Source: Candidatus Woesearchaeota archaeon (GTDB lineage Archaea > Nanobdellota > Nanobdellia > Woesearchaeales > B72-G16). Taken from it: a stretch of 35,646 bases of DNA. The first letter of the stretch is position 1; the number at the start of each line of letters is the position of its first letter. Made by a program: the position numbers and the translations under genes. The notes below the pieces were generated by a model. It saw nothing but the letters and a program-made list of their open reading frames with translations. It made no database searches and was not told the DNA's origin. Location of the stretch: positions 1 through 35,646 of the forward strand of contig QMQO01000012.1 in the NCBI GenBank assembly GCA_003650545.1. The letters are read 5' to 3'. This document shows positions 20,899 through 32,689 of this stretch, piece by piece.

Positions 20899-20937
20899 GT
20901 AATGTTTAAATATTGTATGTTTTTTTTAATTATCTGT

Positions 20938-21083
20938 GCGGCGGTGGTCTAATGGCTATGACAGCGGCCTTCCAATCCTTATAAGAAGATAGCCGCTTAT
21001 CCGGGAAATGTCTCGGACCGTGCATTCGGAAATTCGAATTTCGAAGGGTCATGGCTTTTCTTACGAATGTCCCGGCCGCCGCA
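20938..21083 (+). tRNA. tRNA-Gly(TCC) with three introns (20975-20990 at 37/38, 21006-21032 at 53/54, 21039-21069 at 59/60)
   Basis: Acceptor stem GCGGCGG/CCGCCGC plus A; anticodon stem GCGGC/GCCGC with loop CT-TCC-AA; T-stem CCGGG/CCCGG. Removing three BHB-bounded inserts gives a 72-nt tRNA with a TTCGAAT T-loop. Confidence 0.9.
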
Positions 21084-27248: not shown

Positions 27249-30200
27249 TTATATCTTCAAGCTGACGATCTTGCTCATGCCATGCTCGTTCATGCTAACA
27301 CCATATAATCGATCAGCTTCTGCAATTATACCATCGTTATGGCTTATAACAATATATTGAGCTTTTTCTGAATATTTCTTTATAAGTTCTGATAGCTTCT
27401 GTGAGTTATGCTTATCTAAAGCAGCATCAACTTCATCTAGCACATAGAAAGTGTGAGGATCATATTCTTGGATCGCGAAGATAAATGCTAGCGCTGTTAA
27501 CGTCTTTTCACCTCCTGATAATGAACGGACATCTAAGAATTTTGTACCGGAAAGATGAACCTTTATGTTAACACCCCCATCAAATGGATTATCTAAGTTG
27601 TCTAACTTTAAGAATGCACTACCTTTAGTTGTTAGAGCTTCAAAGAATCTCTGGAAATTTTTATTAACTTGTTCAAATGTAGCAGTGAAAAGTTCTTTCT
27701 TTTTTCCCTCTATCTCATCAATCATTGCAAGCACGTCATTTCTTTCTTTATTCAAAGTTTCTCGTTTTTCTAATAGATTTCGATATTCTCGCTCAGCATT
27801 ATCATATACTTCTAAAGCGCGCATGTTAATACTGCCAAGATTATCTACCAATTTTTCAAAATCAGATATCCGTCTCTTTAACTGCGACTCTGACAGATCT
27901 TCTTGAATTTCTGCTCCTTCGTAACGTTTAAACTCATCTTGTAGAGCTGATATCTCTGCAAGTAATCTTCCTATTTCCTCATTAACAGCGCCACTCTTCT
28001 CCTCGATAGAAATGATTCGTTCCTCTCTCTGTATTACTGATTTTTCATACTCTTGGATTTCATCGTTCAACTTTTGACGTGAACTAAACAGCGTTTTGAA
28101 CTGATTGTAAAAGTCTTTCTCTTGTTTTTCTTTTTCTATTAGCTGTTTCGACATTACTTCTATTTCTTTTTTCAGTTTCCTTATATCGGATTCAAAGTTG
28201 ATTTTTTCTTTTTCAAGTTGTTTTAGAACCTTATTGATATTATCATTCTCAGGCAATAGTATGTTTTGAAGCATCATCTCATCTCCTTTAGCTTCATTGT
28301 TTAGAGTTGTTAGTTGTTCTGCAATCTCTCTCTTCTTTTGTTCAAAGGCATTCAGCTCTGCAATCTTTGCTGGGTGGCGTAGTAAATTGATCTTCTCACG
28401 CAACTCCTGTTTCTTTATCTTGAGCCTAGCAAGTTTTTTGTTTTCTTCTGAAATGTTTGAGATAAGAGTATCAACTTCCTTTTCTTTCTCTGCCAGCTGC
28501 TTCTGTAGATTTTTTTTCTGATCCTTATCTGAATCAACATCACCTGAGTCTAAATGTAAAGATTTTTCCAGCTTAATAATCTCACCTTCTAATTCCGCTT
28601 TGAGTTCACGTAGGCGCATTATCTTTTCTTCATTTTCTTTCTTAGTTGATTCAATAACTGTTAGTTTAGAACTTATTTTTGCAATGTTTGCTGTGATCTC
28701 ATCGATATTATTCTGCAGCTCTTTTTCTTGAAAAGCGTACCCTGTTTTTTTAAGCTGTCTGTAGCCACCTTTCATTACTCCGCTCAGCTCAGAAATATCG
28801 CCATCTAAGGTCACCATCTTTGCTGTTCCAATTCCTAAACGTCTAGCAACATTTATATTGTCAACAACAAGGGTTTCACCAAAGACGTGTGAGAATACAT
28901 TCTTGTATTTATTATCGAATTTGATTAAACCTAGAGCAAGACCATGACATCCCTTATTTTTGGCAAGGTTTTTTGTTTCAGGTTTAATAAAAACAGGCTT
29001 GATCTTGTTTAATGGAAGAAATGTTGCAACACCAAGTTTATTTTCTTTTAGATACTTAATACAGCGGGCGGCTGTTGCATCGTTATCAACAACAAGACTT
29101 TTTATTTTAGAACCTGCTGCTACTTCTAATGCTTGTGCAAATTTTGAGTTAACCTGGCCAAGTTGTGATAGAGTGCCATGAATTCCGCGAATGTTCTTGT
29201 TTTCGAGCAAACGTTTAACCGCAATATCGCCAGCAACGAATTCCTTCATTCCTGCGCTTTTCGCTTTAAGTTTTTCAAGCTCTTCATTTAGCTTTGTTTG
29301 TTCTTCTTTTAACGTGTTAAGATTAATAGAGTTGTTAGTATCTTCTCTTATTGCTATATTAAGTTCAAGAGTTGCTTTTTTGAACAATTGGCGTTTTTCC
29401 CTTAAAATAGCAAGCTGTTCTTTTTGTTCTTTTTCTACTGCTAGGATTTTTTCTATCTTATCATCAACCGACTGTATTTGAAGCTCGATCCTGTCTTTAT
29501 CACGCAATAGATTTTGTTGTTGCTCGCGCATCTCCTGAATCTGTTTCTGGATCGCATCTGCTTCTTCATCTATTTTGTCCATTTCTTCTTCAACTGTTGC
29601 AACATCATCTAGCTTGTGTTTTTTCTTGAATTCTGTTATTTTTGTTTCTACTAGTTTTTGTTCTTTTTGTAAGCGCGCTTTTTCTTTTTCTCTGACCTCT
29701 TGTTTTTTCTTTAAGGCAGATATTTTTTCATCTATTTCTGCTTGTGCTTTCTGTAGTTGTTCAGTCCTTGATTTGATCCTAGAAATTTCGTTCTTGTGAC
29801 TTTCTATCTTGTTCTGCTTACTAGCTTGCTCTATTCGTATGCGTTCAACATCTTTATGGACTTGTAGCTGCTCGGCTTCACCTTTTTCTTCAATCTCTTT
29901 TGAAATCTTGTTGGCTTCAGTTTTGAGTTTTGATATTTTTTCTTTGTACTTAAGGATTTCTTTCTTTAGTTTTTGTATTTTTTTATTGTTCTCTTCAGAA
30001 AGTTTAACAAGGTTGTTTTTTTCAGTTTCTTTTTTCCTGATCTGGATATGGAGATTTGTTGCTTTATAATTATTTATTTGGTCATTTAGGTTCTTGTATT
30101 TTAGAGCTTGGTCACGATCTTTTTTTAGATCTTTTAGATATGACTCCCGCTCAGTTAGAATGATTTCGGCTTCCTTTAGGCGTTCCTCAACTCGTTCTAG

Positions 30201-32426
30201 TTCACGAATTGATTTTGCTTTTTTCTCTTCATATGTTGCAATACCTGCGACTTCTTCTATAATCTTGCGTCTTTCATCTGGTGACATCTCCACAAATCTT
30301 ATGATGTCACCTTGCAAAATTATGTTATATCCGTCAGGGTTTATTTTTGATTTGTCTAACAGTTCTAACACTTCTTGCCTTGTTCTTGTTTTATCATTTA
30401 TTTTGTAAATAGATTGTCCAGACTGTTTTACAATTCTACTTATTTTGATTTCTTCATCTGGCAATGGAAATGTTTTATTTTTGTTGTCAAAGTAGATTGC
30501 TACTTCTCCTTCTTTTGCAGGGTTTTTACTTTTGCCCCCATTGTATATTAGGTTTTTGGACTTCTCAGCACGCATACCTTTAGCAGAGCTTTTCCCAAGT
30601 ACAAATATCAAAGCATCTAAAATATTGCTATTGTGAATGAAAATACTATTGCCAATAAAGTTATGACAGTTAGGAATAGTCAAATCATAAACAAAGGGTT
30701 CTCCTTTAATTTTTCTAATAGAGGTCACTCTATCCCAAAAAATTTCGGAAGATGATATGACTTCAAAAAAATTAACAATTTTAATAGAACTATTAAGCAT
30801 TAATCTTATCTCTCTCTGAATAAAATCATATATTTTCTTAAGGTTCAAAGTTTTGGCTTTTATCTTTGAATCTGTCTTTGAATCAATCTGGGAATCTCCT
30901 CTCCGGTTTGAAGATATGTTTGACTTACCGAATCCAACAGATCCACCTACGAAATCATAAGATATATTCAACTCTTTTAATGTGTTCAAAAGAGAATCCT
31001 GATCTAGAATCATGTTTTTATGAATGTTTCTAATTTTATTTATTCTGTTTTTAAACATGGCTATTATTTCTTTTAGGCTTTTTCTAGTCGGGCAACTCCT
31101 GTTTTCAAGATAAGCTATTAATTTAGGATATTTTTTTCTCAAGGATCTATAGGATAACCTCAAGTCCTGAACGCCTTTTTTAATAAACACATTCACATTT
31201 TGCGGGAGAACATCCACATCCACATTGGAATTTGTAGAATCTGATTTCAGTTTTTTGATTATTATTTCCTCTAATTTTTTTTGTTTTGATGATTTTAAAA
31301 TGATGTTTTGATAAAATTTTTGTAGGTTGCTGTAACCATCTATATAAAGATAAAAATATTTGTCGCTTTTGGTTTTATTTTTAGTTTTTGTTGCACAATT
31401 GCTTTTTTCTTTTTTTCTTGAAATTATTCCGAATCTCAAAAGCAAAAGTTGTAATGTATCAATTAATTTGTTATTTTTAGTACAGTACTCTATTGTGGAA
31501 GTGCCTGACCTTATATAACCGCCACAATCATATAGCCCTGCAATTAAATTTGAGATTACAGAATTATTCGAAATTAGTAGTTCGGGAGGAATATTCTTGT
31601 ACATTGTTAATTTATTAAGTGGGGATCTGAATAGAGTACTTAAAAAATCAGAAATGTTTGTACTAAAACATGAAATTTTTTTAATGTTTTTTTCTATGTT
31701 TTTTTCTCTTCTTTCATGTATATGTACCTTTTTGAATAATTTCTGAACAAGATCCTTAAAATCAGCAACAAGATTTTCGTCGGAGTTAACAAACTCAATT
31801 TTGTTTTTGCTCAGATGACCCTTCCCAATTAAATAGCCTAAAAACCTTGCAAAATCTTCGGTTATTTTTTTGGGAAAATCTATTTTGAAATCTGTTTTGT
31901 TTACATTATTCAGATTTACATATTTTTTGTTTGAGAATTTCAGGATTCTTGGCGTTGCTATAAAATCTTCTTTAGTCAGATCTCGAACTAAAACACTTTT
32001 AACTTCCATTCCTTGAAGCGTCATGACAGGATGACAGCCTGTTGTAACAACCTTCTTACCTGTGTTAGTTGTTATTTCATACAAATATTTTTCTCCTTTT
32101 CTTTTAATAAAAGCAGAAATGTCTTTCTTTACAATCTTCATCGTTTTTGGGTCGAGGCCTAGACAGCGAATAATTTTAGGGTTATCTATTGTAAAGACAC
32201 CATCGTCCATTTTTATATGAAACCTTGAATTTTTTAGATTGTCTTCAACAATGTCTCCTATTTTAACTAGTTCACCATTATCAAGAAGGACTTCTGTGTC
32301 ATAACTACACGACTTCCCGCTACCATTTGGGCCAAGAACAACGTTAAATGTACCTCCAAACGGAATTTCTGTTTTCATGGCAAAGCTTTTGAAGCCTCGC
32401 ATCACCATTTTATTAATCTTCGTCAT
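27249..32426 (-). CDS. smc: Chromosome segregation protein SMC, intein-containing
   Basis: GFKSF, Walker A GPNGSGKS, Q-loop LQG, long coiled coils, hinge GIHG...G.ATFLPL, signature LSGGEK, Walker B LDEVDAALD, ISH. About 1165 aa after splicing. Start placed at ATG 32426 (AGGTGAT RBS). Confidence 0.97.
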   Translation of the reverse strand: MTKINKMVMRGFKSFAMKTEIPFGGTFNVVLGPNGSGKSCSYDTEVLLDNGELVKIGDIVEDNLKNSRFHIKMDDGVFTIDNPKIIRCLGLDPKTMKIVKKDISAFIKRKGEKYLYEITTNTGKKVVTTGCHPVMTLQGMEVKSVLVRDLTKEDFIATPRILKFSNKKYVNLNNVNKTDFKIDFPKKITEDFARFLGYLIGKGHLSKNKIEFVNSDENLVADFKDLVQKLFKKVHIHERREKNIEKNIKKISCFSTNISDFLSTLFRSPLNKLTMYKNIPPELLISNNSVISNLIAGLYDCGGYIRSGTSTIEYCTKNNKLIDTLQLLLLRFGIISRKKEKSNCATKTKNKTKSDKYFYLYIDGYSNLQKFYQNIILKSSKQKKLEEIIIKKLKSDSTNSNVDVDVLPQNVNVFIKKGVQDLRLSYRSLRKKYPKLIAYLENRSCPTRKSLKEIIAMFKNRINKIRNIHKNMILDQDSLLNTLKELNISYDFVGGSVGFGKSNISSNRRGDSQIDSKTDSKIKAKTLNLKKIYDFIQREIRLMLNSSIKIVNFFEVISSSEIFWDRVTSIRKIKGEPFVYDLTIPNCHNFIGNSIFIHNSNILDALIFVLGKSSAKGMRAEKSKNLIYNGGKSKNPAKEGEVAIYFDNKNKTFPLPDEEIKISRIVKQSGQSIYKINDKTRTRQEVLELLDKSKINPDGYNIILQGDIIRFVEMSPDERRKIIEEVAGIATYEEKKAKSIRELERVEERLKEAEIILTERESYLKDLKKDRDQALKYKNLNDQINNYKATNLHIQIRKKETEKNNLVKLSEENNKKIQKLKKEILKYKEKISKLKTEANKISKEIEEKGEAEQLQVHKDVERIRIEQASKQNKIESHKNEISRIKSRTEQLQKAQAEIDEKISALKKKQEVREKEKARLQKEQKLVETKITEFKKKHKLDDVATVEEEMDKIDEEADAIQKQIQEMREQQQNLLRDKDRIELQIQSVDDKIEKILAVEKEQKEQLAILREKRQLFKKATLELNIAIREDTNNSINLNTLKEEQTKLNEELEKLKAKSAGMKEFVAGDIAVKRLLENKNIRGIHGTLSQLGQVNSKFAQALEVAAGSKIKSLVVDNDATAARCIKYLKENKLGVATFLPLNKIKPVFIKPETKNLAKNKGCHGLALGLIKFDNKYKNVFSHVFGETLVVDNINVARRLGIGTAKMVTLDGDISELSGVMKGGYRQLKKTGYAFQEKELQNNIDEITANIAKISSKLTVIESTKKENEEKIMRLRELKAELEGEIIKLEKSLHLDSGDVDSDKDQKKNLQKQLAEKEKEVDTLISNISEENKKLARLKIKKQELREKINLLRHPAKIAELNAFEQKKREIAEQLTTLNNEAKGDEMMLQNILLPENDNINKVLKQLEKEKINFESDIRKLKKEIEVMSKQLIEKEKQEKDFYNQFKTLFSSRQKLNDEIQEYEKSVIQREERIISIEEKSGAVNEEIGRLLAEISALQDEFKRYEGAEIQEDLSESQLKRRISDFEKLVDNLGSINMRALEVYDNAEREYRNLLEKRETLNKERNDVLAMIDEIEGKKKELFTATFEQVNKNFQRFFEALTTKGSAFLKLDNLDNPFDGGVNIKVHLSGTKFLDVRSLSGGEKTLTALAFIFAIQEYDPHTFYVLDEVDAALDKHNSQKLSELIKKYSEKAQYIVISHNDGIIAEADRLYGVSMNEHGMSKIVSLKI
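30630..32309 (-). mobile_element. Intein (560 aa) with a degenerate LAGLIDADG homing endonuclease in the SMC Walker A motif
   Basis: Starts CSYDTEVLL directly after GKS; block B VTTGCHP; blocks C/E FLGYLIGKG and IAGLYDCGG; ends VYDLTIP..HNFIGN.IFIHN, followed by Ser+1 of SNILDAL. Confidence 0.96.
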
Positions 32427-32689
32427 AGTGCCTATCACCTGAGAGTTCTTCCCAGTGGTAATAATAAAGAGATTATTTATAAAGATTTTGTTTTATTTTT
32501 TATTGATTCTTGTCATATTACTTTATTTTTTTTTATTGGCTTGTATCTGCTTTGATAGATATTTATTTTGTAGATATTATTTTCTGATATTCTATATTTT
32601 AGTTGCATTATTTGATTCAATGCTCTTATTTATCTATATTTTAAAATTTATTTTATATCTAAAATTTATTTAAAAATTAAAAAATATTA

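Follow-up and report, generated by a model that had tools for sequence, protein, structure and literature searches.

A tRNA-Gly(UCC) gene split into four exons by three bulge-helix-bulge (BHB) introns lies at 20938-21083 (+) of the window, by which is meant the whole 35,646-nucleotide stretch of Candidatus Woesearchaeota DNA that was analysed (contig C12 of the assembly). It is highly probable that this 146-nt stretch is a functional gene with a precursor of about 146 nt, in which two T-arm introns are coupled and the intron at 53/54 is likely to leave before that at 59/60. The design is not new, as the 53/54 and 59/60 pair, tRNAs with three introns and a dependent order of removal have all been published already. 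Taken alone, the gene adds another example of an established design and mainly corrects an annotation. The pattern of note is a very high intron load combined with a conserved 53/54 intron specific to tRNA-Gly and a single EndA without specific loops.

Anatomy of the tRNA-Gly(UCC) gene

Exon 1 (20938-20974, +) comprises tRNA positions 1-37, with the acceptor 5' strand, the D-arm, the anticodon stem 5' strand and the anticodon UCC. It is followed at the canonical 37/38 site by intron 1 (20975-20990, +; 16 nt), in which GAAG pairs with C32-C35 (CTTC/GAAG). This motif is closed by the anticodon stem and its intron-side helix is 1 bp (h6/c4/h'1). Exon 2 (20991-21005, +) supplies positions 38-53, made up of the anticodon stem 3' strand, a 4-nt variable region and the T-stem 5' strand. 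Intron 2 (21006-21032, +; 27 nt) is inserted at 53/54, where CGGA pairs with U48-G51 (TCCG/CGGA). Its intron-side helix, AAUGU/GCAUU, has 5 bp (outer part AATG/CATT) and the exon-side helix 1 bp (h1/c4/h'5).

Exon 3 (21033-21038, +) is a micro-exon of six nucleotides, TTCGAA, which forms T-loop positions 54-59; an identical T-loop is found in intronless orthologues. Intron 3 (21039-21069, +; 31 nt) is inserted at 59/60 and its CGAA pairs with T54-G57 (TTCG/CGAA). The motif is closed by the T-stem (h5/c4/h'1 once intron 2 is removed), which is contiguous only after removal of intron 2. The intron side of this motif consists of 1 bp, an internal loop and a hairpin of 6-7 bp, and the intron holds a second copy of TTCGAA at 21040-21045. 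Exon 4 (21070-21083, +) completes the tRNA with positions 60-73, comprising the T-stem 3' strand, the acceptor 3' strand and discriminator A; CCA is not encoded.

The central helices, each of 4 bp between 3-nt bulges, are fully paired (4/4) in all three introns, and splice sites in the BHB model fall after the second nucleotide of each bulge. All three motifs are relaxed forms with one 1-bp flank each, departing from the strict hBHBh' form by h'=1 in introns 1 and 3 and h=1 in intron 2. The coordinates, helices and lengths that the earlier note on this DNA had given for the three introns, together with the second TTCGAA, are all present in the sequence.

Upstream of the gene is a TATA-like A/T-rich box, TTTAAATA (20905-20912, +), 26-33 nt before tRNA position 1. 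Read from the sequence, it is a candidate archaeal promoter, an assignment for which we assume the usual spacing rule for archaeal TATA boxes, and the gene is presumably expressed.

In its unspliced form the window yielded no tRNA with ARAGORN and nothing from Rfam at the gathering threshold. The four exons joined in silico give 72 nt that ARAGORN recognizes as tRNA-Gly(tcc), in which the acceptor stem (7 bp), anticodon stem (5 bp) and T stem (5 bp) are paired throughout. The GC content of the joined exons is 65.3%, against 30-36% for the window. Compared with seven orthologous tRNA-Gly(UCC) genes that lack introns, this spliced product shows 60-68 identities over its 72 positions.

Introns were sought in an unbiased way by removing up to three segments, each with a 3-4-3 bulge-helix-bulge and at least one good flanking helix, and by testing the remainder for a cloverleaf. 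On the 146-nt stretch this gave a single solution (cloverleaf score 29), which is that of the earlier note, with the two T-arm introns at 53/54 and 59/60 around the 6-nt exon at 21033-21038. The reversed genome, used as a chance control, gave one solution from 1110 acceptor-stem anchors, with a score of 24 against 29 for the real gene.

The exact boundaries of the T-arm introns had been regarded as slightly ambiguous, owing to the second TTCGAA. Were the copy at 21040-21045 the true T-loop exon, the introns would be of 34 and 24 nt, the mature sequence would be identical and TTCG at 21040-21043 would be able to pair with CGAA at 21064-21067. This is a very improbable arrangement. The 53/54 intron ends in CGGA plus 2 nt directly before TTCRAA in 11/11 homologous genes, only the first copy adjoins the T-stem after removal of intron 2, and no solution using the second copy was obtained in the intron search. 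The ambiguity is resolved in favour of the micro-exon at 21033-21038.

Introns in relatives and in other tRNA genes

A first sample of 40 relatives, one per family, allowed 19 loci to be fetched, 14 of which were solved as tRNA-Gly(UCC). Seven of these have no intron, three have a 59/60 intron only, two combine 37/38 with 59/60, one has 37/38 only and one (G032) has 53/54 only. A 59/60 intron is therefore found in the tRNA-Gly(UCC) of 5/14 solved relatives (19 loci fetched).

For a second sample, the 3' half of the gene was compared with 400 other genomes of the order (E ≤ 0.001). Matches were found in 10/400 genomes, belonging to ten different families, and every one of them covers exon 2 and intron 2; no homologue of intron 3 was found among the 400 at this threshold. 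Nine new loci were parsed and eight solved, all with the 53/54 intron plus other introns, G032 having been solved in the first sample. The tRNA-Gly(UCC) gene of one relative, G258, has both the 53/54 and the 59/60 intron around the same 6-nt exon, and so shares the double T-loop intron design seen here.

When the 53/54 introns of 11 genes were aligned, their ends were invariant and the loop variable. In the helices of the motif 97.3% of cells are paired, compensatory changes occur in 3/10 pairs, and the observed covariation was reached in 0/500 shuffles. The 53/54 intron is homologous in the tRNA-Gly(UCC) genes of ten other genomes, and its motif has the support of helix covariation.

A further tRNA-Gly(UCC) locus, in G143 (L112:1456-1616, -), shows four insertions by eye, in the D-loop and at 37/38, 53/54 and 59/60. 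It gave no solution at a search depth of 4, even with a relaxed rule. At 59/60 the central helix pairs at 3/4 positions and there is no intron-side helix. The locus may represent a gene with four introns or a copy in decay; the insertions would exceed three introns, which the portions of the literature drawn on here state to be the maximum per tRNA gene.

The assembly comprises 1.64 Mb in 133 contigs, with 36% GC, and is 85% complete. With standard tools, ARAGORN with intron search reports 7 tRNAs in the whole genome, and RF00005 has 11 matches at E ≤ 1, seven of them exceeding the cut-off. At E ≤ 1e-4 the number is 6, and among the 40 relatives (one per family) it ranges from 0 to 41, with one genome having fewer than 6. 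The 6-11 tRNAs reported by standard finders would wrongly suggest a crippled translation system. The range of 0-41 visible to RF00005 within the order also indicates that the load of disrupting introns differs greatly between families with near-identical EndAs.

A census by intron search started from 1766 anchors. Solutions were obtained at 23 loci, of which 17 were kept as credible genes. At least 17 tRNA genes carry 31 introns, or at least 1.8 introns per solved gene, in a census that is partial and biased, being blind to acceptor-stem introns, split or permuted genes and more than three introns. Twelve of the 17 have a 59/60 intron, seven have three introns (one of these, the 80-nt solution for Tyr-GUA, is doubtful) and three have none. 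In extracts from the tRNAscan-SE 2.0 paper, Pyrobaculum calidifontis is given 71 introns in 46 tRNA genes and Thermoproteales 0.84 per gene (PMC8450103).

Six loci with a solution were dropped. Five of them (C1:54120, C2:83602, C4:44367, C14:26008 and C120:2182) either had a score under 29 or lacked confirmation from ARAGORN, and C14:12370 combined a long variable arm with a His-AUG anticodon, which is implausible.

The other tRNA in the window, tRNA-Gln(CUG) (191-340, +), is undetected by ARAGORN and Rfam. The intron search bears out the earlier view that it too has three introns and has the 59/60 site in common with the Gly gene. Its introns (all +) lie at 213-233 (D-loop, 21 nt), 250-272 (37/38, 23 nt, central helix 3/4) and 294-326 (59/60, 33 nt). 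An intron of this gene contains a decoy, CTTTGGA, which resembles a UUG anticodon loop and belongs to the intron helix.

A survey of intron positions and similarity across the genome, as the earlier note had proposed, places 59/60 as the commonest site (12/17 solved genes). The motif there always involves the T-stem, T54-R57 and an intron 3' end of YGAA plus 2 nt. Eleven 59/60 introns were compared for evidence of transposition within the genome, and no local alignment scored ≥ 12. Their common sequence is limited to the 3' YGAA plus 2 nt that the motif requires for pairing with the universal T-loop, and the introns are otherwise unrelated in sequence. Among the 11 compared there is no sign, at the level of sequence, of recent copying.

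One might ask whether the locus at 20938-21083 results from misassembly or from decay into a pseudogene, with a working tRNA-Gly(UCC) in the unassembled 15%. The assembly, in 133 contigs, is 85% complete, and just one public run, of DNA and possibly the source of the assembly itself, contains the locus. No second match to the gene was found in its own genome as assembled to 85% (the other matches have E ≥ 2.5), and a second tRNA-Gly(UCC) gene could lie in the unassembled part. Such decay or artefact is nevertheless extremely unlikely, given the perfect stems, the three central helices each paired at 4/4 and the match of the exons to orthologues at 60-68/72. An equal architecture is present in other genomes, and the majority of this genome's remaining tRNA genes share the same construction. 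The reading of the locus as a functional tRNA-Gly(UCC) gene is retained below.

Competing folds and the probable splicing order

Nucleotides at positions 49-51 contribute to two helices, namely the central helix of the 53/54 motif and the T-stem, which closes the 59/60 motif. The 53/54 and 59/60 motifs are therefore mutually exclusive, and the competition between folds proposed in the earlier note is upheld. The 146-nt precursor is a compact natural substrate whose 6-nt exon lies between two splice motifs that cannot form together.

A sequence of events may be proposed for this precursor. After transcription of about 146 nt, EndA would cut each 3-nt bulge between its second and third nucleotides, and the exons would be joined by RtcB. 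The canonical 37/38 intron would form an independent domain and be removable at any time. The 53/54 motif would borrow the T-stem 5' strand, with U48-G51 paired to CGGA of the intron, while the 59/60 motif would pair T-loop T54-G57 with CGAA of its intron and need the T-stem as closing helix. Cutting and ligation at 53/54 would then be followed by refolding, which brings the T-stem up against the T-loop, and by cutting and ligation at 59/60. Mutual exclusion would presumably also block simultaneous cuts, by which the 6-nt exon would be freed.

Folding was calculated with ViennaRNA at 37 C under the nearest-neighbour model and expressed as the cost above the optimum, a treatment that ignores the enzyme and co-transcriptional folding. 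The motif of intron 1 is in the optimum of the full precursor (ddG 0.0, pair probability 0.62). The 59/60 central helix together with the T-stem costs +10.6 kcal/mol in the full precursor, with a probability of ~0; once intron 2 is removed it is itself the optimum (0.0), with a probability of 0.4-0.6. The 53/54 motif costs +7.9 kcal/mol in the full precursor and +10.5 kcal/mol when intron 3 has been removed, so that it is cheaper before removal of intron 3 than after. It has to compete with a 7-bp hairpin that the T-stem 5' strand forms with the start of intron 2, and with a CAUUCG/CGAAUG helix that joins introns 2 and 3 through their 3' parts. Among eight relatives the 53/54 motif has a cost of 1.0-8.0 kcal/mol.

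The earlier note had proposed an obligatory order with 53/54 first. These energies agree with 53/54 being first; they do not carry the word obligatory, since even the 53/54 motif is +7.9 kcal/mol costlier than the optimum. The gene and its junctions could be right and the order still not strict, with EndA cutting whichever motif forms transiently, 59/60 first or stochastically. Besides the unfavourable 53/54 motif (+7.9 kcal/mol), this looser scheme is favoured by the 59/60 central helix with free bulges, which does not require the T-stem and costs only +6.7 in the precursor. The energy model is, moreover, blind to protein binding and to co-transcriptional folding, and in the full precursor of G258 the 53/54 motif costs more than its 59/60 counterpart (+6.0 vs +2.7).

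However, as long as intron 2 is present, the 59/60 central helix lacks a contiguous closing helix and is flanked on the intron side by a single base pair, and its pairing probability is ~0 in the precursor compared with 0.4-0.6 after removal of intron 2. Published multi-intron cases also show a dependent order, as reported in sections of PMC8450103. Unordered splicing is therefore an unlikely account, yet one of some weight. Ordered splicing, with 53/54 before 59/60, is plausible on the modelled energies.

Dependence of one intron on another is an idea already in print and not new in principle. Dependent intron removal was reportedly described by Tocchini-Valentini et al. in PNAS in 2009. The tRNAscan-SE 2.0 paper states that removal of one intron is needed before the next motif forms (PMC8450103).

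Splicing enzymes and comparison with known systems

EndA is encoded in this genome (G000) by a single gene for 176 amino acids on contig C6 (G000:C6:38247-38774, -; equivalent to L021:1474-2004, -). The protein matches PF02778 and PF01974, and TIGR00324 with 117.5 bits. The gene adjoins, head-to-head, that for RNase Z (L021:2078-3022, +; TIGR02651, 305 bits). In the 85% complete assembly there is no further match to PF01974 or PF02778 and no paralogue at E ≤ 10 that might be a second EndA subunit; a missing second subunit could be in the unassembled part.

Alignment with the EndA of M. jannaschii (1a79) covers 172 residues without a gap. Compared with the alpha subunit of S. tokodaii there is an 11-residue gap at the N-terminal insert, and compared with N. 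equitans alpha there are 6 residues fewer before the catalytic His. The spacer between Tyr and His is 9 residues in this EndA and in 80/80 related EndAs. The protein has the features of an alpha4-type enzyme: a single gene, N- and C-terminal domains, Tyr, His and Lys where the catalytic residues of 1a79 align, and an absence of specific loops. An epsilon2 enzyme with the ARMAN-2-specific loop was not found, the one EndA being of alpha type and 176 aa; nor, in this assembly at 85% completeness, was the beta subunit with a Crenarchaea-specific loop that characterizes (alpha-beta)2 enzymes.

RtcB is encoded on contig C10 (G000:C10:11502-14324, -) in one open frame of 1008 aa. The RtcB profile matches this frame in two pieces (1-50 and 45-426) about 1.5 kb apart. 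The insertion is probably an intein in the tRNA ligase.

The closest published parallel in design is pre-tRNA-Pro(GGG) of ARMAN-2, which according to the legend of Fig. 1C has introns at 53/54 and 59/60 (PMC3239211, 2011). As far as that legend goes, the two genes, both from DPANN, have the same two insertion points and a 6-nt piece of the T-loop between BHB introns. They differ in the isoacceptor, which is Gly(UCC) here, and in the additional canonical third intron here. The ARMAN-2 motifs are strict hBHBh' in the wording of the legend, unlike the motifs of the present gene with their single 1-bp flank each. ARMAN-2 is also credited in that source with a three-unit epsilon2 EndA with a specific loop, in contrast to the single 176-aa alpha-type EndA found here.

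Pre-tRNA-Cys(GCA) of ARMAN-2 has a 13-nt intron at 59/60 with a relaxed hBH/BHL motif, which was cleaved in vitro according to Fig. 4 of the same paper (PMC3239211). It resembles the 59/60 intron here in its site and in a relaxed motif closed by the T-stem, and in ARMAN-2 this motif was cut experimentally. The enzyme that cut it is of epsilon2 type, unlike the EndA found here.

Genes with three introns are listed for Thermoproteales in extracts from Kanai 2015 (PMC4390854), which name tRNA-Glu(UUC) of Pyrobaculum calidifontis and tRNA-Pro(UGG) of P. islandicum. These likewise have three BHB introns in one tRNA gene. They belong to Crenarchaeota with an (alpha-beta)2 EndA bearing the Crenarchaea-specific loop, whereas the present gene is from DPANN and the loop is absent.

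A literature search on Woesearchaeota or DPANN together with tRNA introns found PMC5829648 alone on the topic. That paper (Kaneta et al. 2018, PMC5829648) associates DPANN alpha4-type EndAs that have the L3 loop with a greater number of disrupted tRNA genes, and notes that the tRNA sets of such genomes are incomplete. The present genome is like the DPANN cases described there in having a single-subunit EndA and being rich in disrupted tRNA genes. Unlike L3-loop EndAs, its enzyme has no insertion before the catalytic His, where the N. equitans enzyme has 6 additional residues.

The most interesting loose end is the relaxed motifs set against a loop-less EndA. Cleavage of relaxed motifs has been assigned, in the relevant passages of PMC3239211, PMC3488258 and PMC5829648, to EndAs that bear loops or have two subunits. 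By these published rules a loop-less single EndA should not cut the relaxed motifs predicted here, and the combination would be at odds with them; this EndA presumably does cut them. If there is no second subunit, broad substrate tolerance may have arisen here without loops L1-L3, to which it is tied in the literature. Alternatively, tolerance may have shifted onto the RNA, with introns chaperoning their own ordered refolding. Under such RNA-borne tolerance the 53/54 intron, specific to Gly(UCC) and conserved across 11 families, would be ancient and maintained by selection rather than recently inserted. It is possible, although we offer it tentatively, that some Woesearchaeota-type lineages, with this genome as one of the extreme cases, have among the most intron-dense tRNA gene sets known, mostly with relaxed motifs and mainly at 59/60, and that these are served by one loop-less EndA like that of M. 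jannaschii. The 176-aa EndA and this precursor together bear on the link between loops and broad specificity, and on an order enforced by refolding of the RNA.

Two other features of the window were observed. A GC-rich intergenic element (2860-2951, +) contains two perfect hairpins and is flanked by GTGATGA-like and CTGA motifs. An E-value scan of Rfam assigned no family to it, the only match nearby being at chance level (snoR25, 20.3 bits, E 0.89). Possible identities are a small RNA and a fragment of a disrupted tRNA. At 27249-32438 (-) an SMC protein of 1729 aa is encoded, with an insertion matching Intein_splicing and LAGLIDADG near its N-terminal ATPase head.
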